A stretch of DNA of 32,000 nt from assembly GCA_041657425.1 (NCBI GenBank), contig JBBABY010000010.1:1-32000 (forward strand). The letters run 5' to 3'. The notes below the pieces were generated by a model that was not told where the DNA came from, did not search any database, and saw only the letters and a program-made list of their open reading frames with translations. This DNA is from an archaeon (lineage in GTDB: Archaea > Iainarchaeota > Iainarchaeia > Iainarchaeales > CSSED10-239). The first letter of the stretch is position 1, and every line of letters begins with the position of its first letter. Below are positions 3,319-27,122 of this stretch, piece by piece. A program made the position numbers and the translations under genes.

Positions 3319-4026
3319 ATGAATAAACAATTAAAACTAATTTTAGAGGATCTTAAGAAAAAAGGAGACTCCAAGAAAGCAATTGAACAGAAGAGATACC
3401 TTAAGAGTCCATATCAAATGTATGGAATTTGGGGAAAGGATCAAGATTCTGCAGTTAAGCAGTTTTATTTATTAAATAAGGAAATAGACAATAAAGAATT
3501 GTTTAAGATACTAGAAGATTTGTGGAAAAGTAAATGGCACACAGAGAAATCTTTTGCTATTGGTATTGCAACTTATTACACAGATCAATACACCGAGAAA
3601 GAATTATTGTTTTTTAAAAAATGGTTAGATGAATGTACTGGTTGGGACCACACAGATGGAATATCTGGATTTATTATTGCACGAATGGTTGTGGATAATT
3701 CTAAATTGAAAAAAGTCATCAATTCTTGGACAAAAGAGAATTGTATGTGGACAAGAAGGGCGAGTCTTATTAGTTATATAAGATCTTTAAGGAAAGACAA
3801 TAGAGATTTACAAGATGTTTTTAATAATATAAAACCATTAATGCATGAAAAGGAATTTTTTATAAGAAAAGCAATTGGCTGGGTATTAAGAGAAGCAAGT
3901 AAAAAATATTCAAAGGAAGTAATTGCTTTCGTTAAAGAAAATAAAGATGAACTTTCAAATCTTTCTAAAAGAGAAGCTCTAAAAACGATTTTATTAAAAA
4001 AAGAATTATCTAAGTATTTATCTTAG
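3319..4026 (+). CDS. DNA alkylation repair protein (AlkC/AlkD-like HEAT-repeat glycosylase family)
   Basis: Family hallmarks in order: EQKRYLKSPYQMYGI, LWKSKWHTEKSFAI, GWDHTDG, WTRRASLIS, FFIRKAIGWVLREASKKYSKEV, LSKREALK. Confidence 0.85.
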   Translation: MNKQLKLILEDLKKKGDSKKAIEQKRYLKSPYQMYGIWGKDQDSAVKQFYLLNKEIDNKELFKILEDLWKSKWHTEKSFAIGIATYYTDQYTEKELLFFKKWLDECTGWDHTDGISGFIIARMVVDNSKLKKVINSWTKENCMWTRRASLISYIRSLRKDNRDLQDVFNNIKPLMHEKEFFIRKAIGWVLREASKKYSKEVIAFVKENKDELSNLSKREALKTILLKKELSKYLS

Positions 4027-4829
4027 ATAAAATCTCTAATTTCTGTTTGTTTAGTAGTATAATCTGGAACATTTAATTCATAATCCATTACAAAATCAGT
4101 AAATTCTTTTTTTGCATACTTATAGCATTTCATCATATTATCTAAATGTTCATCTCTAACTTTGGTATCAGGATTTAAAAAAGGAGTAAAGTCATAGCCC
4201 ATTTTTTTGTATTTCTCAGATTTTGCAAGTTTAAATGGAATTTCATATAGTGCTAGTCTTTTCTTGTAATTATCTTTTCTATATCTTGCATTAATTATTC
4301 TTGTAATTATAAATCTATTTGCAAATTGGAAAAATACAATCCCCGCAATTGATACTTTTATTCTATTTTTGTAAGTGTCATAATATTTTGGATAAGTTTT
4401 CTTAAAACAAATTTTAACTAATTTTAATGGAAATTTTGGCAATGGTATTTTATAATTTGGAAATTTAGTTTCTAAATAATACTCAGAAACTACGTGTAAA
4501 ACATTATTATAAAATCCTTTTTCTTTAAAGTAATTATGAACATGTTTATCTAGTATTAAATGAGAAATAACTCCAAGGGCAAATAGTCGTTCTTGTTTAT
4601 TTTGAGCATTATCAAGAAGTGATTTTCCATAAATATATTCTATATCGTGTTCTAAGATAAATGTGCTGAAATTTGGTTTATTAGTTAATGTTCTAACATC
4701 TGTAATAAAATGAATATCAGGAAAAATTGCCCCTTGCGATAAATATTTTAAATCCGAGTGTGCAAACAATTTAGGATTTTCTTCTATTAAGTCTTTAACT
4801 AATTGAATGTGTGCAAATAATGATGGCAT
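4023..4829 (-). CDS. Hypothetical His-rich protein, possibly a metal-dependent hydrolase (zinc phospholipase-C-like motifs)
   Basis: 268-aa ORF. MPSLFAHIQL..., GAIFPDIHF and GVISHLILDKHVH suggest metal-binding His/Asp clusters. The functional call is weak. Confidence 0.45.
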   Translation of the reverse strand: MPSLFAHIQLVKDLIEENPKLFAHSDLKYLSQGAIFPDIHFITDVRTLTNKPNFSTFILEHDIEYIYGKSLLDNAQNKQERLFALGVISHLILDKHVHNYFKEKGFYNNVLHVVSEYYLETKFPNYKIPLPKFPLKLVKICFKKTYPKYYDTYKNRIKVSIAGIVFFQFANRFIITRIINARYRKDNYKKRLALYEIPFKLAKSEKYKKMGYDFTPFLNPDTKVRDEHLDNMMKCYKYAKKEFTDFVMDYELNVPDYTTKQTEIRDFI

Positions 4830-8249: not shown

Positions 8250-8284
8250 ACCCTGGACATTTAAGTTATTTGGTTGTCCAGGGT
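8250..8284. promoter_or_regulatory. Perfect 10-bp inverted repeat ACCCTGGACA-N15-TGTCCAGGGT between the methyltransferase stop and the Fic start
   Basis: Read directly: 8250-8259 is the reverse complement of 8275-8284. It is GC-rich relative to the flanks. It could be a terminator hairpin or an operator. Confidence 0.5.
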
Positions 8285-8318
8285 AAGATTTATATATATT
8301 TCTAGATATAGATATATT

Positions 8319-9305
8319 ATGACATATATATATTCTAAAGTAATTAATGGGAAATCATATTATTATTTAAGAATGGATAAAAGAGAAAAAGATAAAAAAG
8401 TAATAAAAGATATAGCGTATCTAGGCAATGATCTTTCTAAAATAAATATTGATAAATTATTAGATAATTCTAAATATAAGAAAGAAATTAGAAAAAGTTA
8501 TAAAGTCATAAATAAATATATTAATTCAAATTATTATTTAGATAAAGCAAAATCAGAAAAATTACATAAGGATAAATATCTTACATATGAACAACAGATA
8601 CTATTAGAATCAATAAGATTACATTTTAAAGACAGATTTCTTAAGTTAGATAGAAATACACAAAGGGAAATATATGATAATTTTGTAGTTTCTTTCACTT
8701 ATAACACAACCTCTATTGAAGGAAATACAATTCCTCTAAGTGATGTTAGAAAGATATTGTTTGATGATAAAATACAGCTTAAGAATAAAACATTAAGAGA
8801 AATATATGACTTGAGGAATACAAAGGACACTTTTTTTTCAATTGTCGAGTCTAAAAAACCAATTAATATTGATTTTATAATTAATACCCACAAACAACTA
8901 GTAAAAGATGTAGATGAAAGAATTGGTTTCAGAAAACATGATGTTAGAGTAATTAAGTCAAGATTTGATAGTGCTCCTTATTTTAGAATAGAAAAGGAAA
9001 TACAAGAGTTAATCAATTGGTATAAAGAAAATAAAAAATTAAATCCATTTATTTTAGCAACAATATTTCATCACAAATTTGAAAAAATTCATCCATTCGC
9101 TGACGGCAACGGCAGAACAGGTCGTTTACTAATGAATTATATTTTAATTAAAAATAATTATCCACCAATAATTATCACAAAGAAAAATAGAGATAAATAT
9201 CTAGAAGCATTAGAATCGGCAGATAAATCAGAAGAGTATTCTAAATTATTACAATTTTTATTAGAAGAATATAAAATAGGATATTGGGAGAATTTTGTAG
9301 TATGA
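8319..9305 (+). CDS. fic: Fic family protein (AMPylase-type, class II with N-terminal inhibitory motif)
   Basis: Canonical HPFADGNGRTGR at 9090-9125. [ST]xxxE[GN] inhibitory motif TTSIEG at 8706-8723. ATG 8319 is preferred over the TTG 8274 used by the ORF track, which lies inside the hairpin. Confidence 0.9.
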   Translation: MTYIYSKVINGKSYYYLRMDKREKDKKVIKDIAYLGNDLSKINIDKLLDNSKYKKEIRKSYKVINKYINSNYYLDKAKSEKLHKDKYLTYEQQILLESIRLHFKDRFLKLDRNTQREIYDNFVVSFTYNTTSIEGNTIPLSDVRKILFDDKIQLKNKTLREIYDLRNTKDTFFSIVESKKPINIDFIINTHKQLVKDVDERIGFRKHDVRVIKSRFDSAPYFRIEKEIQELINWYKENKKLNPFILATIFHHKFEKIHPFADGNGRTGRLLMNYILIKNNYPPIIITKKNRDKYLEALESADKSEEYSKLLQFLLEEYKIGYWENFVV

Positions 9306-10445: not shown

Positions 10446-12791
10446 ATGTACAATTGGGAAAATAAAATGGACAAAAACAATTTATCAAAATCTATTTTTT
10501 TAATATTAGCAATAATAATTTCAATGACATTTATAAGTAATGGAGTTTTTGCGATTGTTCAATATGATCTTTGTGGTATAGCACAATCTGGGGTTTATGA
10601 TTTGTGTATTCAAAATAATTCTGTTAATATAAATCAACAAACTGATAAATGTCCGCCATCTCATCCTTATTATGTTACATTTATAACAAAGGGTATGCAA
10701 GATGGTAATTATTATGTTGCATTTGTAGAAGATTCAATTTTTAAACAAAATGAAGGTGCAATTTTGAAGTACATGTATTATAAAGAAAATAATCCTTCTT
10801 TGGCAACCTTCAATTTCAATGAATATAAAAATACTGGTCAATTATTAATTGATGCATCTAAATTTACTATATTAAAAAATGACAAGGGAATGTCTTATTG
10901 TTTATCTAGTTCTTTTAGTAAAAAAAATGTAGATATATTTATTTGGCAATATAAAACTAAAAATATAAGTAAAACAATTAAATTCGTATCAGATTATCTT
11001 TCTAATAATATGGGGTATAATACTGAGGATTTTTTAGATTTGGGATTAGGTTCAAATGGCTCAATTCAAAGTTATAATTATTTCTCCACAAATTATAATA
11101 AAAATATTTTTTATAATTATGAATTTAGTTCTGTTTTAGGGATAATTGTTCCAGAATTAGTTACTAGTACAATTCCTGTAATAGTCCCCGCAGCAATCCC
11201 TGCCGTAACCTCTACAGCAATCCCTGCCGCAACAGAACCACCAAAAATCACTTTAGAATTTAATCCTAATTTTTATATTTCAGAAATTAATTATTCAACA
11301 GTAGCAAGTACTTTGTTAAAAGCAAGTAAATTAAGAGATAATGATTCATTTGTAGTTGATGATAAGGATAAAGATAAAAACTTTAGTATAGCATTACCAG
11401 GGTTTAAACCAAATACAGATGTATATGCAATAATAGCAACTCCAGATAAATCTACAGAAATATATACTGAATTAGCATATATACTTTCAAAAGATAAATT
11501 TGAGAGTTATAGTTCTCAAACAAATAATTATGAAATAAGAATGTCAATGACTGCTCCATTAAAACAAATTTTTAAATTAGATGCCCAAGGCATTTTTAAA
11601 TTTGGAATTAAAACAGCAGTTACAAATGAAAAACTAGTATTAATATTAATGCAGAAATCAACAGACGGACGTAAAATAAATTTAGCATACACAAACCTTT
11701 ATCTTTTAGATGATGGAAATCAATCTCTACTTTCTCTTTGTGAAATAAACAAAAGAATTGTAAGTTTTTATTGTAAAGGATATAATTGTAATATTCCTAA
11801 GAGCTGTATAGACAGATGGGATTATGATCCAAAACAATTAGAAGGCATAGTTGGAGCACCTTTGCCAGGAGCAACAATAGATGCACCTCCTGCAGAAGGA
11901 ACACCAACCCCACCAGTAACTGAAACTCCTGTTCAACCAACACTTGCAGCAACAGGAAATTGTGGTATTGACAAACAAGCAACAGTAGAAGAATATATTA
12001 CTTGTTTAAGAAATAATATTGAAACAGTAAATTTAACAAAAAGTTATGATTTAGTTATAAAAAATATTATGCAAGGACAAGCTAAGGTTGGAAATGTTTT
12101 AATAAATGATAAATATATTACAAATACTAATAATTTATGTTTTACTAGTAGTTTATTTAATAATGTAGTATTTTCTGTTGCAAAGGCAGAAAATTTAACT
12201 GAAGAAGAAACTGCGCAATTATGGTCAAGACTTGCAGCAGAATCTGGTTGTAAAGTTGATGTTTGTAATGGATATACTTGTGAAAGTCAAGGAGTTGCAC
12301 AAATTAATGTAGAGTCTTGGAGAGGATCATATAATTTGTTAAACCCATATCTGATTGAGATAGATTCGATAAAATATGGAACTTCTACTAAATTTGAGGC
12401 CGAATTGTCAAATGTTAAAAATAATCCAAGTACCGCAATTGAAATTTCTATTGCAATAAATAAATATCATAAAAGTGTTATTTTAAATAAATCTAAAAAA
12501 GCAAATAGACCATTTACAGATTTATTAGATAAGATTTATGATCATGATGACGCAATAGATATGGAATTTGCAACCGCTTATACATATACAGGAGTAAGTT
12601 ATGCTGATCATTTTGTAGATGGAATAAAAATTGGTGCAAAAAGATTTCAAGGGATTGTATATCCTGCGCTACATAAGATGGGATATTATCTTACATATAA
12701 ACATATGATTTATCAATGTCATAAAGAAGTAACAACTAATGCATTTGTTACTGCTTATAAAACAAAATATAATGGAATATATTGTAAGTAA
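10446..12791 (+). CDS. Large secreted protein with Pro/Thr/Ala linkers and a C-terminal lysozyme-like (lytic transglycosylase, SLT-type) motif set
   Basis: N-terminal signal/anchor SIFLILAIIISMTFISNGVFA. Linkers IPVIVPAAIPAVTSTAIPAATEPP and PPAEGTPTPPVTETPVQP. In order: AAESG, QGVAQINVESW, NPSTAIEISIAINKY, ATAYTYTG. An alternative start is ATG 10467. Confidence 0.7.
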   Translation: MYNWENKMDKNNLSKSIFLILAIIISMTFISNGVFAIVQYDLCGIAQSGVYDLCIQNNSVNINQQTDKCPPSHPYYVTFITKGMQDGNYYVAFVEDSIFKQNEGAILKYMYYKENNPSLATFNFNEYKNTGQLLIDASKFTILKNDKGMSYCLSSSFSKKNVDIFIWQYKTKNISKTIKFVSDYLSNNMGYNTEDFLDLGLGSNGSIQSYNYFSTNYNKNIFYNYEFSSVLGIIVPELVTSTIPVIVPAAIPAVTSTAIPAATEPPKITLEFNPNFYISEINYSTVASTLLKASKLRDNDSFVVDDKDKDKNFSIALPGFKPNTDVYAIIATPDKSTEIYTELAYILSKDKFESYSSQTNNYEIRMSMTAPLKQIFKLDAQGIFKFGIKTAVTNEKLVLILMQKSTDGRKINLAYTNLYLLDDGNQSLLSLCEINKRIVSFYCKGYNCNIPKSCIDRWDYDPKQLEGIVGAPLPGATIDAPPAEGTPTPPVTETPVQPTLAATGNCGIDKQATVEEYITCLRNNIETVNLTKSYDLVIKNIMQGQAKVGNVLINDKYITNTNNLCFTSSLFNNVVFSVAKAENLTEEETAQLWSRLAAESGCKVDVCNGYTCESQGVAQINVESWRGSYNLLNPYLIEIDSIKYGTSTKFEAELSNVKNNPSTAIEISIAINKYHKSVILNKSKKANRPFTDLLDKIYDHDDAIDMEFATAYTYTGVSYADHFVDGIKIGAKRFQGIVYPALHKMGYYLTYKHMIYQCHKEVTTNAFVTAYKTKYNGIYCK

Positions 12792-15894: not shown

Positions 15895-15920
15895 AATTAG
15901 TTACTATTGACTACAGGTGA
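15895..15920 (+). promoter_or_regulatory. Shared leader/operator box AATTAGTTACTATTGACTACAGGTGA upstream of the repeat-protein gene
   Basis: 23 of 26 nt are identical to 29641-29666 upstream of the SAM synthetase gene. It sits just downstream of a TATA-like ATATATATAATAAATA and includes the SD. Confidence 0.45.
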
Positions 15921-15925
15921 TATTT

Positions 15926-18220
15926 ATGAAGAAATTAAAAAAATCAGCAGTAAGTTTTAATAAAAAAGAAATAATGGATAAATTAAATAAACAGCTCAAT
16001 TTTCCAACTACTTTTGTTATTAGTCCAATTGATATATTCTTATTAAAAAAGAAAAAAATTGATATTAAAAATTATGCAAGAGACTTAAAGAAAGTAAATG
16101 CAAATCACACAATTTATCTTGGTATGAAATATAATATTACGGACTTAATGGACGCCGGATTTACCGATACTGAAATTAAGACGTTAGGTTTTACATTAAA
16201 TGAAAAGAAACCAGTTGTTAAAGTTGCAAAGAAACTAGTTGTTATAAAGAAAAAACCAGTTGTAATTAAGAAAAAACCAATCCTAAAAAAGGCAACTGCA
16301 AGTTTAAGCAAAAAAGAAATTGTTGATAAATTAAGTAAACAGCTTAATTCTCCAACCACTTTCTTAATCAGTCCAATAGATATCTCACTATTAAAGAAAA
16401 AGAAAATAAGCATTACAAGATATGCAAAAGACTTAAAAAAAGTAAAAGCAAATCACACAATTTATCTTGGAATGAAATATACAATTAAAGATTTAAAGAA
16501 TGCAGGATTTACAAATTTCGAAATTACAGAACTTGGGTTTAAAGCAGAAGAAAAGAAATCAGTTGTTAAAAAGAAAAAAGAAATTAAGAAAAAGCAATTA
16601 CCATTAATAGAACTTCTAAGAAAGAAAACTCCTGCAAGAAAATTACTTTCATTAGGTTATAACTATATAAAACTAAAACAAAGAAAATATACAGCAACTA
16701 AATTAAAAAAAATGAAATTCAGTTCTAAATATCTTTTTACGATTGGTTTTTCAGCAGCAGATTTACATAATGCAAAATATGCATTAGTGGAATTAAAGAA
16801 AGCAGGTTATTCTGCAAAGGAATTAAAAGCAATTGGCTATTTAGCTAAAGATTTATTAAAAGTAAAATATAGTGAAGATGTTGTCGCTTATGCACAGTAT
16901 CCCGCAAAGGAATTATATAAATTAGATTTCCCAGTTAAGAAATTAAAGATTGCAGGATATAAAGCAACTGAATTAATTGAAGCAGGATATACTTTAGAAG
17001 ATTTAAAGAAGGCATACACAATTAGAGAACTATTAGTTGCAGGATATACTCTTTTAGATTTAGTGGATAAAGAAAAAATAAATATACAGCAATTACTTGA
17101 TGAAGGCATAACTATTGCTGATCTTTTAAAAGAAGGATTTAGAATTAAAGAATTAACTCCAGTTGGCGTTACTGCTAAACAATTTAGAGAAGCAGGTGTA
17201 AGTTCAAGAGACATGTATAAAGTAGGATATTCTATAAGAGAACTAAAAGACGCAGGATATAAGTTAAAAGACTTATTTGATTTAAGAGATCTTTTAACAT
17301 TAAAAGAAAAGAAAGAAGAATTTAATTTAGAAGATTTAAGATATTTAAATTATTCTGCAAAAGAGTTACTTGGATTTGGGTATGCTCCTGCTGAGCTTTA
17401 TTTCTCTGGATATACCACTAAAGAATTATCAGATGCAGGACTTTCTTGTGTTCAGTTAATGGATGCTGGTTGTTCATTAAATGATATAAGATTAATCGGT
17501 TGTGGTTTAGCAGAATTTATTTCTAAAGGATATTTCGCAAAAGACTTAAAAAGAGCAGGATTTTCTGCAGTTGAGATTCATTTAGCAGGATATAGTTTAT
17601 ATGATTTAAGAGATGCAGAATTTAATGCAAAAGAATTACTTGGTATTGGATATTCAGCAAAACAATTTCATAATCTAGGATTTACTGCTAGAGAATTATA
17701 TTTTGCAGGATTTGGTTTACAAATAATAAAAGATGCAGGATATGGTGCTAAAGAACTTGCAGATTTAGATATTGATATAATTGAATTTGCAAATGCGGGA
17801 TATTCAGCAAAAGAAATGAGGGCTGCAAGTTACAGTGCTTATGATTTAAAGAAAGCATATCCAGCAAGAGAACTTAGACTTGCAGGTTTTGATGCTGCTT
17901 CTTTAAGGGATGCAGGGTACTCAGCAAAAGAATTACATGATGTTGGGTTCTTTCCAAGAGAATTATATTATGCAGGATATTCTGCAAAAGATGTTAATGG
18001 ACTAGGATATGGGCCAAGACAATTAAGAGTAATAAGATATACAGCAAAAGAATTAAAGCCAATAGGGTTTACTGCAAGAGAATTATATTCTGCAGGATAT
18101 AGTGCTGATCAATTAATCAAAGCAGGATATAGTTATAAGGACTTATCAGATCTTGGAGTAAGTCAAAGAAGACTACATAGACATCTTAGAATACACTCTA
18201 AAGGATATAATTTCTTTTAG
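15926..18220 (+). CDS. Large repeat protein: duplicated N-terminal module, Lys-rich linkers, then about 50 tandem decapeptide (aGYsakELkx) repeats
   Basis: Uninterrupted 767-codon frame. ATG 15926 with AGGTGA SD is preferred over GTG 15917. No signal peptide or TM segment seen. Confidence 0.75.
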   Translation: MKKLKKSAVSFNKKEIMDKLNKQLNFPTTFVISPIDIFLLKKKKIDIKNYARDLKKVNANHTIYLGMKYNITDLMDAGFTDTEIKTLGFTLNEKKPVVKVAKKLVVIKKKPVVIKKKPILKKATASLSKKEIVDKLSKQLNSPTTFLISPIDISLLKKKKISITRYAKDLKKVKANHTIYLGMKYTIKDLKNAGFTNFEITELGFKAEEKKSVVKKKKEIKKKQLPLIELLRKKTPARKLLSLGYNYIKLKQRKYTATKLKKMKFSSKYLFTIGFSAADLHNAKYALVELKKAGYSAKELKAIGYLAKDLLKVKYSEDVVAYAQYPAKELYKLDFPVKKLKIAGYKATELIEAGYTLEDLKKAYTIRELLVAGYTLLDLVDKEKINIQQLLDEGITIADLLKEGFRIKELTPVGVTAKQFREAGVSSRDMYKVGYSIRELKDAGYKLKDLFDLRDLLTLKEKKEEFNLEDLRYLNYSAKELLGFGYAPAELYFSGYTTKELSDAGLSCVQLMDAGCSLNDIRLIGCGLAEFISKGYFAKDLKRAGFSAVEIHLAGYSLYDLRDAEFNAKELLGIGYSAKQFHNLGFTARELYFAGFGLQIIKDAGYGAKELADLDIDIIEFANAGYSAKEMRAASYSAYDLKKAYPARELRLAGFDAASLRDAGYSAKELHDVGFFPRELYYAGYSAKDVNGLGYGPRQLRVIRYTAKELKPIGFTARELYSAGYSADQLIKAGYSYKDLSDLGVSQRRLHRHLRIHSKGYNFF
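15956..16540 (+). repeat. Two copies of an about 80-aa module, 351 nt (117 codons) apart, inside the repeat-protein gene
   Basis: KKEIMDKLNKQLNFPTTFVISPIDIFLLKKKKIDIKNYARDLKKVNANHTIYLGMKY... matches KKEIVDKLSKQLNSPTTFLISPIDISLLKKKKISITRYAKDLKKVKANHTIYLGMKY... The copies share an identical 23-nt run, gcaaatcacacaatttatcttgg. Confidence 0.85.
16637..18166 (+). repeat. 30-nt (10-codon) periodic coding repeat array, about 50 units
   Basis: Successive units include AGYSAKELKA, IGYLAKDLLK, AQYPAKELYK, AGYKATELIE, AGYTLEDLKK ... AGYSAKELHD, VGFFPRELYY, AGYSAKDVNG. GCAGGATAT recurs at the nucleotide level. Confidence 0.85.
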
Positions 18221-18671: not shown

Positions 18672-19373
18672 TTATTTTTTTTTAATTTTTTTAACTTCTT
18701 TTTTCTGTTTTGTTACAACTAGTTTTCCAGTTGCTAAGAATTCTTTCATACTAATAAGCCCGTATTTTGTGATTATCCAAGAACCAGTAAATATTGCTCC
18801 TGCCATTAATGGATTTAATCTTAAGAGTAATGAAGCTACGCCACCAGCAGTAGCTACTTGAATGTCTGGTCTTGAAAATAATTCCCCAATTTTTTCAAAG
18901 AATTCTTTTGTTTTACCAGTTTTAGGATTTATTTCTGCAGCTAGTTCTCCGTTTGTAAAAATTCTAACTCTTCCATCTTCTTCTGAAGAGATGATTGCTA
19001 GAACGTTTTTAGTTTCTGAAATTCCTCTTGCTGCAGAATGTCTTGTTCCATGTCCTTTAAGGATTGTAGTTTTCTTAACTTTTGCACCATAATCAACAAT
19101 GTACCCATCATTATCAACAACTATTGCTCCATCAAGTTCAAGTAAAGCGATTAAGAGGGTTTGTGTTTCTTTGTTGAAGATGCTTATTTTCTTACCAGAA
19201 AATAAATCAGGATATAGGCATTCGTATTTATCAGAGATATCCTTTTTAGTAATTATAAAAAAAGAACCTTTCTTTTTATTTGCCATGTCGTTAACCATTT
19301 GAACAACTACGGCTATTACTTTTTTATTTAAATTTGAATTGTGGTTTTTATTCATATTAATATATATATCCAT
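18672..19373 (-). CDS. Diadenylate cyclase (DAC/DisA_N domain; c-di-AMP synthase) with a hydrophobic C-terminal segment
   Basis: DAC hallmarks in order: LELDGAIVVDNDG, GHGTRHSAARGISE, LAIISSEEDGRVRIF. The C-terminal VATAGGVASLLLRLNPLMAGAIFTGSWII is hydrophobic. Confidence 0.85.
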   Translation of the reverse strand: MDIYINMNKNHNSNLNKKVIAVVVQMVNDMANKKKGSFFIITKKDISDKYECLYPDLFSGKKISIFNKETQTLLIALLELDGAIVVDNDGYIVDYGAKVKKTTILKGHGTRHSAARGISETKNVLAIISSEEDGRVRIFTNGELAAEINPKTGKTKEFFEKIGELFSRPDIQVATAGGVASLLLRLNPLMAGAIFTGSWIITKYGLISMKEFLATGKLVVTKQKKEVKKIKKK

Positions 19374-19461
19374 TTAGTTTATATAAAGTATATTATTTAT
19401 TTTTCAGTTATGTTTATAAAATAATTTGATTACTTATATTTATCAATTAAACGGAGAAACC

Positions 19462-20727
19462 ATGAATAGTCCACTTTTATTTTTAGTGTTTATCGCAGGA
19501 ATATTTTTATTAGGATTTTTAGGGAATGTATTTTTTAGAAAAACAAAGATTTCAGATGTTTTTATATTAATTTTTATTGGTTTATTTTTAGGGCCTATAT
19601 TTCAAGTAGTCCCTCAAGCAACAATATTACAACTAAGGGAATATTCACCTATTTTTGCAGCAATTGCCTTAATTGTTTTAATTTTTGATGGAGGACTATA
19701 TCTTAATTTTTATAGAGTTATTACTGAAATAAAAAATGCATTTTTATTTACAATGCTAGTTTTTGTATTAACTTCTGTACTTTCTGGAGTGCTGTTACAT
19801 TTTGTTTTTGGATTTGAATGGATTTATGGTCTTTTATTAGGAGTAATTATTGGAGGAACGAGTTCAGAAATAATAATTCCGTTAGTTACAAAATCAAGTG
19901 CAACAGACCAAACAAAAACAATAATGACTTTAGAATCAGCAATAACTGATGTTTTATGTGTTGTTGCAACAGTTACTATTGTTGGAATAATTATTACTCA
20001 AGTTGCAAATACAAAATTAATTATTCAAGGGGTATTTTCTGCTTTTGCAATCGCCGCAGTTGTTGGCCTTATTGGAGGGATAATTTGGTCTAAAATTTTA
20101 AGAGACTCTGAAGATGTAAAAGGATTTAGTTACTTTCTTACGCTTTCGTTTTTATTTTTATTATATGCAGCAACTGAATTTTTAAGTGGTAATGGCGCAT
20201 TTTGTGTTTTAGTGTTTGGATTAGTGTTAGGCAATGCTTCGGACATATTTAAAACATTTAAGATGAAAGATTTCACTTTAGAAAAAAACATACACCATTT
20301 CCAAACGGAAATCTCACTAGTGATTAAAACTTTCTTTTTTATATATTTAGGAGTAATTATTGAATTTAAATATATAACTTTTGAAGTAATCTTAATAACT
20401 TTAGCATTAGTTGCTTTAATTATTATTTTAAGAATATTAATTACAAAACTATTATTTTTTAAAAATTTTGAAAAGAAAGACAAAGCTCTTATCGTTTCAT
20501 TACACACAAGAGGGTTAGCTGCTGCAGTACTTGCAACTTATCCGATAAGTATGGGAATTAACAATGCCTTTACTCAAAAAATAGTAGGTGTTTCATTATT
20601 AGTAATACTTATGACAAATGTAACAACTACAATATACTATTTTATAATAGAACACAAAAGTGATAGTGAAACAATAAATAAAAATTATTTATTAAAAAAA
20701 GACAAAAATAAAATGAGTAATAAATGA
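19462..20727 (+). CDS. Cation:proton antiporter (Na+/H+ exchanger family, CPA-type)
   Basis: About 12 TM helices and no soluble domain. ATG 19462 with GGAGAAACC SD is preferred over TTG 19426. Overall pattern is typical of Na_H_Exchanger proteins. Confidence 0.8.
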   Translation: MNSPLLFLVFIAGIFLLGFLGNVFFRKTKISDVFILIFIGLFLGPIFQVVPQATILQLREYSPIFAAIALIVLIFDGGLYLNFYRVITEIKNAFLFTMLVFVLTSVLSGVLLHFVFGFEWIYGLLLGVIIGGTSSEIIIPLVTKSSATDQTKTIMTLESAITDVLCVVATVTIVGIIITQVANTKLIIQGVFSAFAIAAVVGLIGGIIWSKILRDSEDVKGFSYFLTLSFLFLLYAATEFLSGNGAFCVLVFGLVLGNASDIFKTFKMKDFTLEKNIHHFQTEISLVIKTFFFIYLGVIIEFKYITFEVILITLALVALIIILRILITKLLFFKNFEKKDKALIVSLHTRGLAAAVLATYPISMGINNAFTQKIVGVSLLVILMTNVTTTIYYFIIEHKSDSETINKNYLLKKDKNKMSNK

Positions 20728-21743
20728 TTTCTAAAAAAGGGGTTTCTGAAATAATAGTTGTAACAATGGTTATTGTAGTTTCTATAATTATTGCAGGAAT
20801 ATTTTTTGTTTGGATTAATGAATATTTATCTAAGGATAAGTTAGATCAAACAGGTGGGGTACTATTACAAGCAAGCGATTTATCTTGTATGAATGTAAAG
20901 ATTAAAGTTGATTCTTGTACAATAAACAATGCAAATAAAGTTACTCAAATTTTAGTTACAAATAGTTCTGATTTAACTCTATTTAATTTTGTGCTTACAA
21001 TTGAAGGAAAGAATGTAAGTGGAACAGATATGACACTTATTGGAACATTTGATGAATCGGTTTCTGGAGGTCAAATAGTAAATCTATCGACAGATACTAA
21101 TTTTAATTATACAAGAGAAGACTTTGATTATTTTACTTTGGATACAAGTGAAATAACAAGCATGGTATTAACTAATGGGACTTGTCCTAAGAAATCAGAA
21201 ATTTTAGAATGCGAGATTATCGCAGGTCCATTAACCACACGCATTATTTCTCCAGAAGATGAAAAATATTATTTTTATGAAGACTCAATAGATTTCAATG
21301 CATACACAAGTGGAGGAAGTGAAGATTATAATTGTTCTTGGTCTTCAGATGTTGATGGCGAATTAGACACCGGTTGTAATCTTGCAATAGATACTTTAAA
21401 AAATTTAGGAGCACACACAATTACTTTAACAGTAACAGATGGAGAAAGTACAGAGATAGCAACCACAGGCATTACAATTAAAGACCACTTAGTACCAATC
21501 ATTTCATCTCCAGCAGACGAATCCATAGTTGCATTAGGAGCAATTGAGTTCTCTGGTTCAGTAAGTAACGCACAAGGAGAATACACTTGTTCTTGGACAT
21601 CAGATGTAGATGGTGCAATTGGATCAAGATGTGATTTTAATAAAAGTAATTTAACTCTTGGCGTGCACACCATTACTTTGACGGTAGCAGATGAATTAGA
21701 AACAAGAAGCACAACTGCAGATATTAATGTTTTAGCAGAATAG
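20724..21743 (+). CDS. Archaeal type IV pilin-like (class III signal peptide) surface protein with 2 PKD-like repeats; ends at an in-frame TAG
   Basis: N-terminus KKGVSEIIVVTMVIVVSIIIAGIFFVWI. Shared head domain SDLSC ... LTNGTCPKK. Two repeats: CSWSSDVDGELDTGC...LGAHTITLTVTDGES and CSWTSDVDGAIGSRC...LGVHTITLTVADELE. Confidence 0.8.
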   Translation: MISKKGVSEIIVVTMVIVVSIIIAGIFFVWINEYLSKDKLDQTGGVLLQASDLSCMNVKIKVDSCTINNANKVTQILVTNSSDLTLFNFVLTIEGKNVSGTDMTLIGTFDESVSGGQIVNLSTDTNFNYTREDFDYFTLDTSEITSMVLTNGTCPKKSEILECEIIAGPLTTRIISPEDEKYYFYEDSIDFNAYTSGGSEDYNCSWSSDVDGELDTGCNLAIDTLKNLGAHTITLTVTDGESTEIATTGITIKDHLVPIISSPADESIVALGAIEFSGSVSNAQGEYTCSWTSDVDGAIGSRCDFNKSNLTLGVHTITLTVADELETRSTTADINVLAE

Positions 21744-22742
21744 CCATGTATCACGGAAGGAGATGGCTCAGAAGAAAATCCATTTATTATTTGTACAATA
21801 GAAGACTTGAATAATGTAAGAAACGATTTAGAGGGTTATTATTTACTTGGTGCGGATATAGATATGAATGTTTCGCCATACAATGAAGGAGAAGGCTGGG
21901 AACCAATTGGAGATGCTTCTGCAGGATTTTTGGGAAATTTTGACGGCAATAATCACACAATAAATAATTTATACATTAATAGACCAGAAACAGATAATGT
22001 AGGATTATTTGGTTATATTATTAGTAATGTAATAAATAATGTAAAATTAGAAGATGTTAATGTTATAGGTCAAAATTATGTGGGGGGATTAGTTGGAATG
22101 AATAATCAGGGAACAATTTTCTCGAGTAATTCCATAGGAAATATTTATGGAATTGGGGGAGTTATTGGTGGTTTAGTTGGGTATATAGAACTGGGAGAGA
22201 TAACTAATTGTTTTTCAAATTCTGTAGTCACTGGAAGAAATAGTGTTGGTACATTAATTGGATCTGGTTTTCAAAGTATCGTCGTAGAAAGTTATTCAAC
22301 AGGGTCTGCAATAGGAGAAGAAAGTGTAGGAGGAATGATTGGACTCGACGAAAGTGGAACATTTGAAAATTGTTATTCATTAAGTAATATAACACGTATA
22401 TCTGATTCTAGTGAAACATCTTTTGGTGGGTTTATAGGATATACAGAAGGCTGGACAGATATTAACAATAGTTATTCAATAGGAAGAGTAATTTATGAAG
22501 ATACATCAAATCCAACAAATAAAGGATTTTCTGGAGATGCAATCAATGGTTACAATAATTTTTGGGATATGAATACATCATTGCAAACAACAAGTGATGA
22601 TGGAGCAATTGGTTTAACAACAGAACAAATGAAAGATCCAAATAATTTTACTGATTGGGATTTCGACACCATCTGGGATATTAATGAAGGAACAACTTAT
22701 CCTTATTTAAGAAATAATATTCCAAGTTCTTTGCCTCAGTAA
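21744..22742 (+). CDS. GLUG-motif repeat domain ORF without its own start codon or signal peptide; in frame with the preceding pilin/PKD gene
   Basis: Lead-in GDGSEENPFIICTIEDLNNVRNDLEGYYLLGADID, then VGGLVGMNNQG, IGGLVGYIELG, VGGMIGLDESG and FGGFIGYTEG repeats. Same frame as 20724-21743. Only TTG 21807 or ATG 21864 are available as starts, and both lie inside the module. Confidence 0.7.
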   Translation, partial: PCITEGDGSEENPFIICTIEDLNNVRNDLEGYYLLGADIDMNVSPYNEGEGWEPIGDASAGFLGNFDGNNHTINNLYINRPETDNVGLFGYIISNVINNVKLEDVNVIGQNYVGGLVGMNNQGTIFSSNSIGNIYGIGGVIGGLVGYIELGEITNCFSNSVVTGRNSVGTLIGSGFQSIVVESYSTGSAIGEESVGGMIGLDESGTFENCYSLSNITRISDSSETSFGGFIGYTEGWTDINNSYSIGRVIYEDTSNPTNKGFSGDAINGYNNFWDMNTSLQTTSDDGAIGLTTEQMKDPNNFTDWDFDTIWDINEGTTYPYLRNNIPSSLPQ

Positions 22743-22804
22743 CTAAAAGCTTTTTTAAAAGTTATATTTATAAAATAATTCTCCTTCTATATTAATGATA
22801 GAAT

Positions 22805-24154
22805 ATGATTAAAACAAATAAAGGCGCATCAGAGGTTATTGTTGTAACTTTAATTATTGTGGTTACAGTAATCCTTGCAGGTATTTTCTTTGCTTGGCTT
22901 AAGGAATCTTCAAATACACAATTAGATCAAACATCAATGCAATTAAAAGAAGCAAGTGATTTGTCTTGCAGCAATGCTACATTTAAGATTGAATCTTTTG
23001 ATTTAGACGAAGTAAATAGAAAGATTAGTTTTGTTTTATCAAACAACTCTGATTTAAAAATTTTTAATTTGATTTTGTCAGTTCAAGGGAAAGATGCAGA
23101 AGGTGTTGATTTAAAAATTAGTGGAAGATTTGATACAATTGTTGAATCTGGACAAATGGTTTCACTTTCAACAGATTCCAATTTCACTTATATTTCTGGA
23201 GATATATCAGCTTTAGGAACATTAGATTTTGGGAATTTAACAAATATCACTTTAACAAACGGAACATGTCCTAAAAAGATTTTATTAATTGATAGTTATG
23301 ATTTAACTTTAATTCAAAGTGATTTAGTTGCAGACCCAAATGCAGATACGTTTTTTGAATCTCAAAACATAACTTTATCGTCAGAAGAAGGAGCAACAAT
23401 ATATTACACAACAGATGGGAGCGATCCAACAATCGAAAGCGAAGTTTATGTTTCTCCAATTAATATTCCTTTAGATACTGTTATAACAATAAACGCAATT
23501 TCGGTTAAGCCAAATTATGAGACTAAAGATTTTACAGGAAAATACACAGTAACCCATATTCTTGCAACGCCGACTGCTGACCCCGAACCTTATGAATTTA
23601 CAAGGCCAATAGAAGTTAGATTATTTGCAGAAGACGGTGCAACTATTTACTATACTCTTGATTCAAGTATACCTGGCGGAAAATCTATGCTATATGAATC
23701 TCCTATACTAATTAATTCCACAACAGTAATAAATGCAATAGCTGTGAGGGATGGATATGGGGATAGTGATCTGTTTACTGGCACATATACTTCTTTAGAA
23801 AGTTATACTTTAGAATATAACACTTCATCTGGGGTTTTAACATTAGAATTAATTCCAGATTTATCTATTCCGCTTAGTAATAATATAGCATTTAGATATT
23901 TTGGTGCTTTTAAGGATCCTATAAGTACTTCTGCTTCAGCTGCTACTACTTCAGGTTTTCTAGAGGCTAATCCTAGTCCATACGAATTTAAAGACTGTAG
24001 GCTAATTAGATTTGATTGTGAGCAGTTGGCTTTAGATATAGGTATGAACGACGTAGATAGATTTGAGATAATTGAAATACCAGATAAAGGGAGCATTAAT
24101 GTTTTGATTACAATTTTACCCGATGATATTACAATAGTTTCTGATAAGAAGTGA
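22805..24154 (+). CDS. Archaeal type IV pilin-like surface protein with two chitobiase/hexosaminidase-C-like (GATIYYT.D) repeats and a unique C-terminal domain
   Basis: N-terminus NKGASEVIVVTLIIVVTVILAGIFFAWL. Paralogous head domain (SDLSC ... LTNGTCPKK). Repeats EEGATIYYTTDGSDPT...VITINAISV and EDGATIYYTLDSSIPG...TVINAIAV. Confidence 0.8.
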   Translation: MIKTNKGASEVIVVTLIIVVTVILAGIFFAWLKESSNTQLDQTSMQLKEASDLSCSNATFKIESFDLDEVNRKISFVLSNNSDLKIFNLILSVQGKDAEGVDLKISGRFDTIVESGQMVSLSTDSNFTYISGDISALGTLDFGNLTNITLTNGTCPKKILLIDSYDLTLIQSDLVADPNADTFFESQNITLSSEEGATIYYTTDGSDPTIESEVYVSPINIPLDTVITINAISVKPNYETKDFTGKYTVTHILATPTADPEPYEFTRPIEVRLFAEDGATIYYTLDSSIPGGKSMLYESPILINSTTVINAIAVRDGYGDSDLFTGTYTSLESYTLEYNTSSGVLTLELIPDLSIPLSNNIAFRYFGAFKDPISTSASAATTSGFLEANPSPYEFKDCRLIRFDCEQLALDIGMNDVDRFEIIEIPDKGSINVLITILPDDITIVSDKK

Positions 24155-24159
24155 AAAGA

Positions 24160-24663
24160 ATGTTTAAACTAAATAATAAAGGTGCTTCAGAAGTAATAGT
24201 AGTGACTTTAATAATTGTTATTTCTGTAATCTTAGCTGGGCTTTTCTTTTCTTGGCTTAAAGAGTCTTCTAAACAGAATATGGATGATGCAAGTAGTGCA
24301 CTTGTTAATTCAAGTGATGTTTCTTGTATAGATGCTAAGTTTTTAGTTGATTCTTGTGATATTAATAGTACAAGTAGAGTAACTAAATTAATGTTTACTA
24401 ATAATTCTGATTTAAAAATATTTAATATAGTGCTTACTATTGAAGGGAAGAATGTAAGTGGAACAGATATGACACTTATTGGTAGATTTGAAGATGTTGT
24501 TAGTGGTGGAGAAGTAATTGAATTATCCACAGATACTAACTTTACTTACACTAGACAAGATTCTGATTATAATACTTTAGACACTAGTGAGATAAGTAAT
24601 ATGGTTCTAACTAATGGAACTTGCCCAAAGAAGGCAGTTGTACTTAATTGTATTGTTAACTAG
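24160..24663 (+). CDS. Archaeal type IV pilin-like protein, head domain only (short paralogue)
   Basis: NKGASEVIVVTLIIVISVILAGLFFSWL. LTIEGKNVSGTDMTLIG is identical to the 20724 paralogue. ATG 24160 is preferred over GTG 24151. Confidence 0.8.
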   Translation: MFKLNNKGASEVIVVTLIIVISVILAGLFFSWLKESSKQNMDDASSALVNSSDVSCIDAKFLVDSCDINSTSRVTKLMFTNNSDLKIFNIVLTIEGKNVSGTDMTLIGRFEDVVSGGEVIELSTDTNFTYTRQDSDYNTLDTSEISNMVLTNGTCPKKAVVLNCIVN

Positions 24664-24690
24664 TTGTTTTAGCATAGCGAACTAATGTGC

Positions 24691-24705
24691 TTTTTTTTAT
24701 TTTTT
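24691..24705 (+). terminator. Oligo-T tract (T8-A-T6) downstream of the pilin-like gene cluster
   Basis: Archaeal terminators are typically oligo-T runs. This tract lies 28 nt after the stop at 24663. Confidence 0.35.
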
Positions 24706-24927
24706 AATTTTGATGGGCGATTTTTTTAAGGTTTATTTTTATAAAATATATTTCTCATTATTTATTGGACAGTTTTGGCGAGTAATTTTTGTCGTTGGTA
24801 ACTTTTAAGTAATATATTATTTAAATAATAAATTATTTAAATATATAATTAAGTAAAACTGCTCTATTTAAAAACATTTTGTTCTTTCTTATTAATAATT
24901 ATTAAACCGATAAACGAGAGGGATAAA

Positions 24928-25170
24928 ATGGGAGTAATAACAATATCAATGGATGATAAATCTGAAAAGACTTTGAGAGAGTCTGCAAAGTTACTTTATG
25001 GAGATAAAAAGGACGCAATAAGTAAAACAATAGTACAAGCAGTAGATAATTTAAATAATAAAAGAGAAGATACTCTTGCAAGATTAAGACATAGGATGTA
25101 TGTAAATCCAATAAAGGTTGGAAAAGGCGGAAAGATGCCTAAAACAAGAGCAGAGATCTACGAAAGATAA
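24928..25170 (+). CDS. vapB: Ribbon-helix-helix-type antitoxin (VapB-like)
   Basis: VITISMDDKSEKTLRESAKLLYG...AISKTIVQAV fits a strand-helix-helix pattern. It lies 14 nt upstream of a PIN gene and is preceded by GAGAGGGATAAA. Confidence 0.6.
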   Translation: MGVITISMDDKSEKTLRESAKLLYGDKKDAISKTIVQAVDNLNNKREDTLARLRHRMYVNPIKVGKGGKMPKTRAEIYER

Positions 25171-25184
25171 AATGGTGGTAAGAA

Positions 25185-25748
25185 ATGACTTTAGAAAACT
25201 TTTATTATAATCAAAATTCAAATAATGATTTTTTAGATATTCAAGAACAATATTTAATAGATACAAATATACTTGTAATTTCTCAATCTAAAAAAGAATC
25301 AGAAGAACGACGATTAATTGCTGCAGCAATTGTAGAATCCGGCACTATTAAAAAAAATGCATTTGTAAGTATACAAAATTTTGTAGAATTTGTAAATGTA
25401 ATAAAACAGAAACTTAAATCCTTAGATGATAATGAAATACAAGAAACACTTATTGATTTCAAGTCTGCATTTACAGTTTTATTTTACTCAGAAAACACTG
25501 TGTCTGCGACAGTAAAGCTATCTTCAGAAACAAAAGTGCACTTTTTTGATGCCCTTCTAGCACAAACTATGCTTGAGAACAATGTAAGAGTGATCTATAC
25601 AGAAAACACTAAGGACTTCAACAAGATTCCTGGAATTAAAGCAATTAACCCATTTACAGATAAGAAAATAGCGAGACTTTGTGAAAAGGCAAGAAAGCAG
25701 AAGTTAAAGTATTCTGTACAAGTAAAAAAGAAGATAAAAATAAAATAG
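25185..25748 (+). CDS. vapC: PIN-domain ribonuclease toxin (VapC-like) with a Lys-rich C-terminal tail
   Basis: Acidic PIN residues in the expected order: YLIDTNILV, VEFVNV, FFDALLAQT, YTENTKDFNKIPGIKAINPF. Confidence 0.8.
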   Translation: MTLENFYYNQNSNNDFLDIQEQYLIDTNILVISQSKKESEERRLIAAAIVESGTIKKNAFVSIQNFVEFVNVIKQKLKSLDDNEIQETLIDFKSAFTVLFYSENTVSATVKLSSETKVHFFDALLAQTMLENNVRVIYTENTKDFNKIPGIKAINPFTDKKIARLCEKARKQKLKYSVQVKKKIKIK

Positions 25749-26151: not shown

Positions 26152-26314
26152 TTAAATTTTCAGAGTATTTTACACTAAATATTGGACAATCCCCAGTTAA
26201 AAAAAATAAATATTTATAAACTTATCGCAGCATAATATGATTATTATATTAAATAACTTCTATAAGTTATTAAAATATATTATTATTAAAAAAAATTAAA
26301 AAATGGAGATTAAA

Positions 26315-26644
26315 ATGAAAAATGAAAAAACAAAATTAATCATTTGGGCAGTGGTTGCTTTAGTGATTGGTGTAATAATCGGGCTATTATTAACAAATGT
26401 TGTGTCTGGCAATACAACAAAAGTAATGAATACGAAATTTAACAAAAACCCATTTAATGACACCGTGGGTGCATGTTGTAAAAATACATTAAACCAGTAT
26501 ACTTCTATTGAATCTGCATCTTGTTGTGTTGTTATTGGGCGCCAAGGCTATGATCCAGAAACTCCATTAAATGAATTAGGTAGTGTATTGCCACCCGGAT
26601 TTAATTATCTGTGGGATGATCCTATATTTGATCACCCTTTATAA
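26315..26644 (+). CDS. Small membrane-anchored/secreted Cys-containing protein (paralogue A)
   Basis: MKNEKTKLIIWAVVALVIGVIIGLLL anchor. CC...CC pairs (GACCKN, SASCCVV). The leader AAAAAATGGAGAT is shared with paralogue B. Confidence 0.55.
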   Translation: MKNEKTKLIIWAVVALVIGVIIGLLLTNVVSGNTTKVMNTKFNKNPFNDTVGACCKNTLNQYTSIESASCCVVIGRQGYDPETPLNELGSVLPPGFNYLWDDPIFDHPL

Positions 26645-26852: not shown

Positions 26853-27122
26853 ATGAAAAACGAGAAAATGAAATGGTACATTTTAATTGCTGCAGCTTTA
26901 TTAGTTGGAGCAATAATTGGATACTTTGCGACTGCAAACTTATCTACGACAGGAAATGCATGTCAGAATTTAAACAATCTTAATGGCATAGTTGTTGATG
27001 CAGAAGAAGGCTATTTTATATCTTATGAAGACTGCATAGGTGGCGGCGGGTCAGCCCCAGGATATCCTCGTAGAAGGATTTGTTTTAAATCGGATCATAC
27101 AACAGAAATGATACCAAAATAA
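26853..27122 (+). CDS. Small membrane-anchored/secreted Cys-containing protein (paralogue B)
   Basis: MKNEKMKWYILIAAALLVGAIIGYF anchor and 3 Cys. Same AAAAAATGGAGATGAAAATAAAATG leader as paralogue A. Confidence 0.55.
   Translation: MKNEKMKWYILIAAALLVGAIIGYFATANLSTTGNACQNLNNLNGIVVDAEEGYFISYEDCIGGGGSAPGYPRRRICFKSDHTTEMIPK

Follow-up and report, generated by a model that had tools for sequence, protein, structure and literature searches.

Background

Life in attachment to other cells is presumed for DPANN archaea, with few of the molecules responsible identified so far. Here, we describe an array of three paralogous genes (A, B, and C) that we read as archaeal type IV pilin genes, two of them with large additional C-terminal modules, in a 32,000-nucleotide stretch of DNA from an archaeon of the Iainarchaeota (Iainarchaeales, CSSED10-239; GenBank assembly GCA_041657425.1, contig JBBABY010000010.1, positions 1 to 32,000 of the forward strand). 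This whole stretch is referred to as the window; coordinates are window positions unless another contig is named, and the three genes lie on the same (plus) strand.

The closest described proteins are bacterial modular pilins such as PilB and PilC of Streptococcus sanguinis, which join a pilin module to an extra domain (Raynaud et al. 2021, PMC8179133). The survey of such proteins in that study was keyed on IPR012902, lists concanavalin-A-like lectin and M26 peptidase domains among their cargo, and contains the word "archaea" 0 times. A recent census reports two platform genes in the layout of certain type IV filament systems of DPANN (bioRxiv 10.64898/2026.04.22.720090), and pili-like appendages have been imaged at the contacts of DPANN with other cells (PMC7906910). 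In the literature we found no paper on the archaeal head family reported below. The locus supplies concrete attachment candidates, namely a pilin head family poorly captured by Pfam together with its cargo repertoire, and its variable island with clear recombination tracts offers a way to follow the evolution of attachment specificity across strains.

A shared head with the features of archaeal pilins

Gene A (20724-21743; 339 amino acids) has the leader MISKKG, followed by a hydrophobic helix and a head domain that extends to about position 21215. Gene B (22805-24154; 449 amino acids) begins with MIKTNKG and its head ends near 23290, while gene C (24160-24663) is a head-only pilin of 167 amino acids counted from its ATG, with an alternative GTG at 24151 that adds 3 codons. 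About 20 hydrophobic residues come after each of the N-termini of A, B, and C (MISKKGVSEIIVVT, MIKTNKGASEVIVVT, and MFKLNNKGASEVIVVT, respectively), and all three leaders (KKG-VSEIIVV, NKG-ASEVIVV, and NKG-ASEVIVV, with the hyphen at the predicted cleavage site) conform to the class III pattern. The archaeal prepilin-type signal suspected in the first-pass annotation is borne out by an alignment of 11 homologues, in which G8 (position -1) and S10 (+2) are invariant and K7 (-2) is near-invariant ahead of the hydrophobic segment. Such conservation of Gly, Ser, and Lys before a hydrophobic segment is expected at a class III site, unlike at a Sec signal.

The heads share 45-60% amino acid identity over about 165 residues, helix included, and the motifs SD[LV]SC and LTNGTCPKK are invariant among the three. 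The shared head and its motifs had thus been recognized correctly, while its size needs adjusting: the part bracketed by the motifs measures about 100 residues, not about 150, and the whole unit about 165. Four cysteines are conserved in the head, of which the second and fourth are jointly absent in B and its close orthologues, and this joint loss suggests that they form a pair. In addition, the N-x-S/T sequons N81/S83 and N152/T154 are invariant in the head alignment, which would fit an extracellular glycoprotein.

A profile of the 11 heads, searched against 1.84 billion representative sequences, retrieved 214 proteins, the closest 40 or so of which match across the whole head; gene A's own head scores E 2e-68 against the head-family profile (P0011). 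The distant matches are proteins of 140-180 amino acids with the consensus KKGxSPxIATVLLI...W...C...N.G...C, and 28 of 60 such relatives have a Pilin_N match, as has, in precomputed annotation, the B orthologue P0014. The AlphaFold model of C consists of a helix (residues 9-57) and a beta-sandwich (61-165; pLDDT about 90), and Foldseek aligned this model over its full length with the pilus subunits of S. solfataricus, P. calidifontis, and S. islandicus (ranks 2, 6, and 25). The Pilin_N search and the head model called for at the outset therefore gave sub-threshold matches for all three proteins and a helix-plus-sandwich architecture.

The strongest evidence at hand for this head family as a pilus-machine substrate is its gene context in two metagenome-assembled genomes (MAGs) of the DPANN genus Candidatus (Ca.) Iainarchaeum (L025 and L026), where a prepilin peptidase gene (Arc_PepC_II/Peptidase_A24; 50.4 bits vs. 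a cut-off of 29.9), a gene for a 964-residue protein, and two T2SSF genes for TadC-like platform proteins are followed by three pilin genes. The peptidase gene lies 6-9 kb upstream of the family members. The pilins are, in order, a head-family member of 177 amino acids, a canonical pilin of the Pilin_N type with a fused FGE-sulfatase domain, and P0017, a head-family member of 174 amino acids with 36% identity to C. On the contig of L025 (GCA_028702685.1, 1123-10525) these genes form a compact type IV filament cluster, in which three secreted paralogues of about 455 amino acids follow the pilins.

Since profile, fold, and gene-context evidence agree, we consider A, B, and C to be paralogous archaeal type IV pilins of a divergent clade within the Pilin_N/class III signal family, with a probability of roughly 0.7. 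Several points weigh against this assignment. No window protein reaches the Pfam gathering score of Pilin_N (PF07790), the matches being 24.7 bits for B, 16.5 for C, and 14.0 for A vs. 25.2, and NCBIfam gave just weak UpsA matches (E 6e-5) that stay far under the cut-off. The top sequence matches in the PDB are archaeal pilins (9myg, 8fk7, and 8gi2), and all of them are weak. The structural matches to pilins (6w8x, 8fk7, and 6nav; E 1e-3 to 1.5e-2, TM-scores 0.42-0.56) are of moderate strength, and Ig-like sandwiches of unrelated enzymes score alike. The close and distant head sets align in hhalign over their full length, Cys and Asn positions included (99.5% probability, E 2e-23), in a test that is partly circular as the distant set was retrieved with the same head profile. 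The residue at +3 is Glu, where canonical Pilin_N proteins have Pro. As the first-pass annotation had already noticed for the window, genes for a prepilin peptidase, a pilus ATPase, and a platform protein are absent from it, and the same holds for the window plus 10 kb on each side (about 52 kb). The family is tied to such machinery through another DPANN genus. Finally, major and minor roles, cleavage, glycosylation, disulfides, and adhesion are all inferred.

Varied C-terminal modules

Downstream of the head the three genes part ways, in line with the swapped modules that had been read from the sequence at first. The cargo of A comprises two PKD-like repeats (21216-21476 and 21477-21740) with a mutual identity of 41% (E 3e-15), of which Pfam PKD_4 matched the second only (E 3e-5, under the gathering score). 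B carries two Ig-like CHB_HEX_C_1/Fn3_assoc domains (about 23336-23790; E 3e-32 for CHB_HEX_C_1 and 6e-30 for Fn3_assoc) and a conserved alpha/beta tail of about 120 amino acids (23791-24151), for which Pfam gave no match and a Foldseek search with full-length B no tail-specific one. C has nothing beyond the head. Both A and B thus consist of a pilin module with extra domains that are not peculiar to pili, the defining layout of modular pilins.

In the AlphaFold model of B (pLDDT 78), the pilin head is succeeded by a string of beta-sandwiches and a small alpha/beta end domain. Foldseek matched this model with generic tandem Ig/Fn3 proteins of the adhesion type, including the Aureispira grappling-hook protein and fibronectin, and the modelled cargo may therefore mediate adhesion or ligand binding.

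The repertoire is wider across the family, whose members with a full-length head match range from 159 to 2867 amino acids. Among 27 long members, Pfam found Laminin_G_3 in 12, CHB_HEX_C/Fn3_assoc in 9, Glug and PKD in 2 each, and RCC1 repeats, PT-HINT, CBMs, and NHL in 1 each. The largest member belongs to a pair of adjoining giant proteins on another contig (L027; JGI Ga0272380_10000022, 1-28604): the 2867-residue protein (P0021) combines this pilin head with CHB_HEX_C domains, and its neighbor of more than 3356 amino acids has CHB_HEX_C domains and a PilY-type DUF2341. A 1063-residue RCC1-repeat protein follows the pair.

A variable island between an antiporter and a toxin-antitoxin-like pair

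The array is bordered on the left by a Na+/H+ antiporter gene (19426-20727, plus strand; Pfam Na_H_Exchanger) and on the right by a toxin-antitoxin-like pair, i.e., a gene for an 80-residue protein (24928-25170) and a PIN gene with a Pfam match (25185-25748), both on the plus strand. The start codon of A overlaps the antiporter stop as ATGA (20724-20727), just as the initial annotation had it. We compared this arrangement with syntenic contigs from activated-sludge and other metagenomes, together with "uncultured archaeon" MAGs; a scan of genome contigs yielded only three loci, all labelled "uncultured archaeon". The common frame consists of a diadenylate cyclase gene (DAC), the antiporter, the pilin array, an optional membrane protein of about 300 amino acids with 1-3 giant proteins that end in NlpC/P60, the 80-residue gene, and the PIN gene. 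The last two occupy the same place in L003, L004, L010, L011, and L021, and the antiporter stop directly adjoins or overlaps the leading pilin gene, of whichever type that is (the window, L007, L004, L003, and L006).

The arrays themselves differ in content: A, B, and C in the window; B and C in L007 and L011; B with an extra DUF5018-like insert and C in L003, L010, and L016; two head-only genes in L006; and C only in L004 and L021. A head-only C-type gene is found in every related locus and is always the last one, B-type genes are usually present, and A-type genes are rare and broken. The proposed shuffling of modules between strains is hence seen here: inside the borders set by the antiporter gene and the PIN pair, whole genes come and go, modules are inserted, sequences recombine, and genes are truncated. 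Given this constant presence and final position of the head-only gene, we propose C as the candidate, and likely, major subunit, a role that its small size would also suit.

Recombination within and between genomes

Within B, a tract of 593 nucleotides (22904-23496) covers the head sandwich along with the first CHB domain and shows 100% identity to its counterpart in the B orthologue of L007, vs. 62-90% in the flanks of B, 78% in the antiporter gene, and 63% in C. A chimeric L007 contig is unlikely, as the flanks lack long exact words that could join the strains and the mosaic protein (P0010) is encoded on two contigs from two sources. The sequence comparison shows a recent exchange of a head plus module between diverged lineages, and this is a far stronger recombination signal than the one between A and C, to which the first-pass annotation had drawn attention.

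That second signal is a patch in A (20991-21043, encoding the beta-hairpin VLTIEGKNVSGTDMTLIG) and its partner in C (24430-24482), which agree at 51 of 53 bases and share an exact run of 35 nucleotides, against an A/C background of 70-71%. The identity profile is thus elevated at the patch, as had been reported; whether the patch reflects recent recombination between the two paralogues is a matter of probability. Permutation of codon columns gave P = 5e-5 for the patch window and P = 2.5e-4 for the exact run, and identical residues use the same codon in 14 of 17 cases inside the patch vs. 39 of 78 outside (Fisher p = 0.017). These values are nominal, and the A-type gene of another organism (L008) is similar to both window copies in this segment (83% to A and 81% to C), so that a stricter null of 82% identity raises the P value of the patch to 0.008; quartet site-count tests returned p = 0.06-0.2.

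Strong purifying selection on a hairpin critical to this sub-clade, combined with the codon bias of a 28% GC genome, is a possible but distinctly less probable source of the patch. It would account for the L008 segment, in which 81-83% identity to A and C compares with 65-69% elsewhere, and it accords with the non-significant quartet tests and the modest excess at synonymous sites. Simple conservation of the hairpin is argued against, however, since this segment varies more between loci than the remaining head does (56% vs. 62% identity) and carries indels, whereas A and C are identical here at 18 of 18 amino acids and 51 of 54 nucleotides, an agreement that stays improbable under the 82% null. 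Moreover, the B and C paralogues of L010 share a derived hairpin (85% vs. 72%, with a 28-nucleotide run) that is absent from the orthologues of either, with a switch of nearest neighbor. We therefore regard gene conversion as the likely, not proven, origin of the A/C patch.

Proposed assembly and the membrane-anchor alternative

If A, B, and C are pilins, they would be made as prepilins and cut after the invariant Gly (between the K-G and the [AV]-S of the leader) by an A24-type peptidase encoded elsewhere in the genome. A filament would then be assembled by a TadC/ATPase machine, with the N-terminal helices of about 50 residues packed in its core, and the beta-sandwich, stabilized by disulfides and probably by N-glycans, would face outward. 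With C as the likely major subunit, A and B would act as modular pilins made of a head, an Ig-like stalk (two PKD or two CHB_HEX_C/Fn3_assoc domains), and a terminal binding module, which by analogy could be the GLUG module in the ancestral form of A and the conserved alpha/beta tail in B. Such a pilus would display interchangeable adhesin or lectin modules. It is plausible, by analogy with the pili of DPANN and the Candidate Phyla Radiation (PMC7906910), that these pilin-like proteins attach the presumed episymbiont to its host.

An unlikely alternative for the same proteins is that the N-terminal helix, whether cleaved as a class III signal or left uncleaved, does not polymerize, and that they are membrane-anchored adhesins or binding proteins, comparable to the substrates of the Sulfolobus bindosome, with the head as a membrane-proximal stalk. 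The lack of assembly genes within about 52 kb, the coupling of the first pilin gene to a Na+/H+ antiporter instead of pilus genes, and the existence of family members of 2274-2867 amino acids, which would be awkward filament subunits, all speak for it. Every locus, however, has a head-only member of 160-170 amino acids, and an anchor that carries no cargo would make little sense; in Ca. Iainarchaeum, family members directly follow peptidase and TadC genes, and the head fold aligns over its full length with archaeal pilins that form filaments.

A stop codon that severs the GLUG module from gene A

Gene A ends with a TAG (21741-21743), and a single in-frame codon is all that separates it from an open reading frame (ORF) of 332 codons (21744-22742, plus strand, same frame) with a Glug match above the cut-off (E 9e-9) and a weak match to Peptidase_M26_N. 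The annotation made at first sight had assigned this GLUG sequence to A, and rightly so: homology to P0019, whose 519 residues combine head and GLUG in a single ORF, sets in 2 residues past the TAG, ahead of the earliest in-frame TTG or ATG. The nearest full-length archaeal GLUG homologues that were inspected (P0160-P0164, P0167, and P0170; 44-50% identity) are fusions of pilin head and GLUG, and in P0261 a GLUG module is joined to a bacterial N_methyl/T2SSG pilin. Because homology starts before any start codon, the homologues are fusions, and the ORF has no signal of its own, it is the severed C-terminal module of an ancestral 672-residue pilin with the order head-PKD-PKD-GLUG.

The TAG is identical in the window, an ENA assembly, and a Logan assembly, which rules out an assembly error. 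At least 6 other long ORFs of the window, C among them, are terminated by TAG as well; it is an ordinary stop here and the code is the standard one. Genome-wide recoding of TAG, be it to pyrrolysine or by another reassignment, was rejected on the same grounds, and neither a tRNA gene nor an Rfam family was found in the window. With the TAG, the product of A ends cleanly at a domain linker and keeps head and both PKD repeats intact.

That 332 codons should have stayed free of stops in DNA of 28-34% GC leaves two options, a recent mutation or read-through that keeps the module under selection. Programmed read-through or recoding, which would yield both a 339-residue pilin and a 672-residue one with a GLUG tip, could explain why the TAG falls precisely in the linker that joins PKD2 to GLUG, why neither stops nor frameshifts follow it in such AT-rich DNA, and why it is fixed across three assemblies. 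We nevertheless hold it to be quite improbable: the other ORFs, C included, end with the same codon, the window offers no tRNA gene or Rfam element, and the A-type orthologue of L008 (720-1772, Logan SRR27197516) is broken at other places, by an in-frame stop in the first PKD repeat and a later frameshift, which points to decay. In L008, the ORF upstream of the A-type gene ends in a GLUG-like sequence. An intact close orthologue of A was not found by head-profile, GLUG, or pattern searches; protein searches gave none with more than 50% identity, and when JGI metagenomes were scanned for strains with a sense codon at this site, by exact pattern with NNN in place of the TAG, nothing was found. 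As the A-type gene of L008 is broken elsewhere and such genes are absent from most related loci, a recent truncation is favored for the TAG.

Surrounding genes and candidate signals

A role of A, B, and C as archaellum-associated FlaF/FlaG-like proteins is highly improbable, for despite the JGI label of P0014 ("FlaG/FlaF family flagellin (archaellin)") and Arch_flagellin matches of up to E 0.001 in 2 of 60 distant relatives (P0017 has just E 0.07), there are no fla/arl genes in the window plus 10 kb on each side, the window proteins have no Arch_flagellin (PF01917) match, the cargo of the head family is of adhesin or lectin type, and the genes called in the Ca. Iainarchaeum context include a peptidase and two TadC genes and none of the archaellum.

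An AT-rich motif, TTTTTTAARRKTTATWTTTATAAAATA, occurs as a direct repeat with 85% identity before B (22751-22777, plus strand, where it reads TTTTTTAAAAGTTATATTTATAAAATA) and before the 80-residue gene (24722-24748), and looks like a candidate archaeal promoter of the TATA or TATA/B recognition element type. Downstream of C, an oligo-T run (about 24690-24708) resembles a terminator. To the left, DAC (18672-19373, minus strand) is divergent from the antiporter gene, and the order DAC-antiporter-pilin is kept in L004, L006, L011, and L021; pilin expression may be coupled to ion or cyclic di-AMP (c-di-AMP) signalling, as this order hints.

In related loci, the island also holds a membrane protein of about 290-340 amino acids and 1-3 large secreted proteins (about 410-1230 amino acids), several of which end with an NlpC/P60 cell-wall hydrolase domain (L003, 3110-11235; L011, 10493-17290; L010, 2326-4581; L016, 1720-9081). 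The window has no such genes at the island site, and a related ORF of 781 amino acids (10446-12791) lies upstream of glmS. Further left of the array, a protein of 767 amino acids (15917-18220, plus strand) consists almost entirely of "Decapeptide repeat region" (PF25296, E 2e-124, 10 stretches) and is syntenic in L004, L006, and L011. To the right, two small paralogues (26303-26644 and 26853-27122, plus strand) have an N-terminal membrane anchor (MKNEKTKLIIWAVVALVIGV...), Cys-rich C-termini, and no Pfam match; in L003, L010, and L011, homologues follow the PIN gene. A Fic/DOC-domain protein (8274-9305, plus strand) and a homologue of Zn-dependent phospholipase C (4023-4829, minus strand) are encoded in the window too, and both could serve as effectors of a host-associated lifestyle.

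Comparison with known systems

A more speculative picture, to which we give rather little credence, would make the island a plug-and-play device by which a DPANN archaeon recognizes hosts or substrates: C would be a pilus scaffold that takes any paralogue sharing its head, co-resident lineages would swap cargo such as PKD-GLUG, CHB-tail, and Laminin_G modules through homologous recombination in the conserved head and signal, conversion would match the hairpin for co-assembly, nonsense or leaky stops at linkers such as the TAG would switch tips on and off, and the conserved translational coupling to the antiporter gene beside DAC would link the supply of pilin with ion or c-di-AMP signalling.

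Set against described systems, the large functional proteins with class III signals of the Sulfolobus bindosome (FlaFind set) are alike in these two respects, size and signal. They are solute-binding proteins, whereas here the modules are Ig-like stalks with lectin or adhesin domains and a head-only paralogue is always present. The cluster of Ca. Iainarchaeum matches the layout of DPANN filament systems with two platform genes (System 1/subsystem 4A, bioRxiv 10.64898/2026.04.22.720090; Makarova et al. 2016, PMC4858521), which likewise include several pilins and adhesin-like proteins, while the array of the window differs from these systems in being detached from the machinery and fused transcriptionally to a Na+/H+ antiporter gene.

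With the archaeal Pilin_N pilins (PF07790, formerly DUF1628; Haloferax PilA, Natrinema PilA2 (8gi2), 9myg, and 8fk7), the proteins have in common the charged leader, Gly or Ala at -1, Ser at +2, the helix, and the beta-sandwich. They depart from them in having Ser-Glu for Ser-Pro, a four-Cys pattern, LTNGTCPKK, scores below the cut-off, and many large C-terminal extensions.

Bacterial modular pilins (S. sanguinis PilB and PilC, PMC8179133) resemble A and B in architecture and overlap with the family in cargo, i.e., concanavalin-A-like lectin (Laminin_G_3 here) and M26/GLUG domains, and in both cases a non-modular pilin gene stands beside modular ones. Their head is defined by the N-methylation motif (IPR012902), whereas that of A, B, and C is an archaeal class III/Pilin_N head without an N_methyl match, which makes the locus an archaeal analogue outside the bacterial set. 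Modular and head-only paralogues share their head here, with 45-60% identity, unlike S. sanguinis PilB and PilC, which are minor pilins distinct from the major ones. The idea of modular pilins is not new, and nothing in this locus conflicts with current views of type IV filaments. By analogy, one head-only core subunit and two modular pilins would make the array an archaeal counterpart of the bacterial modular pilins and extend to archaea a concept that has so far been documented in bacteria (PMC8179133).

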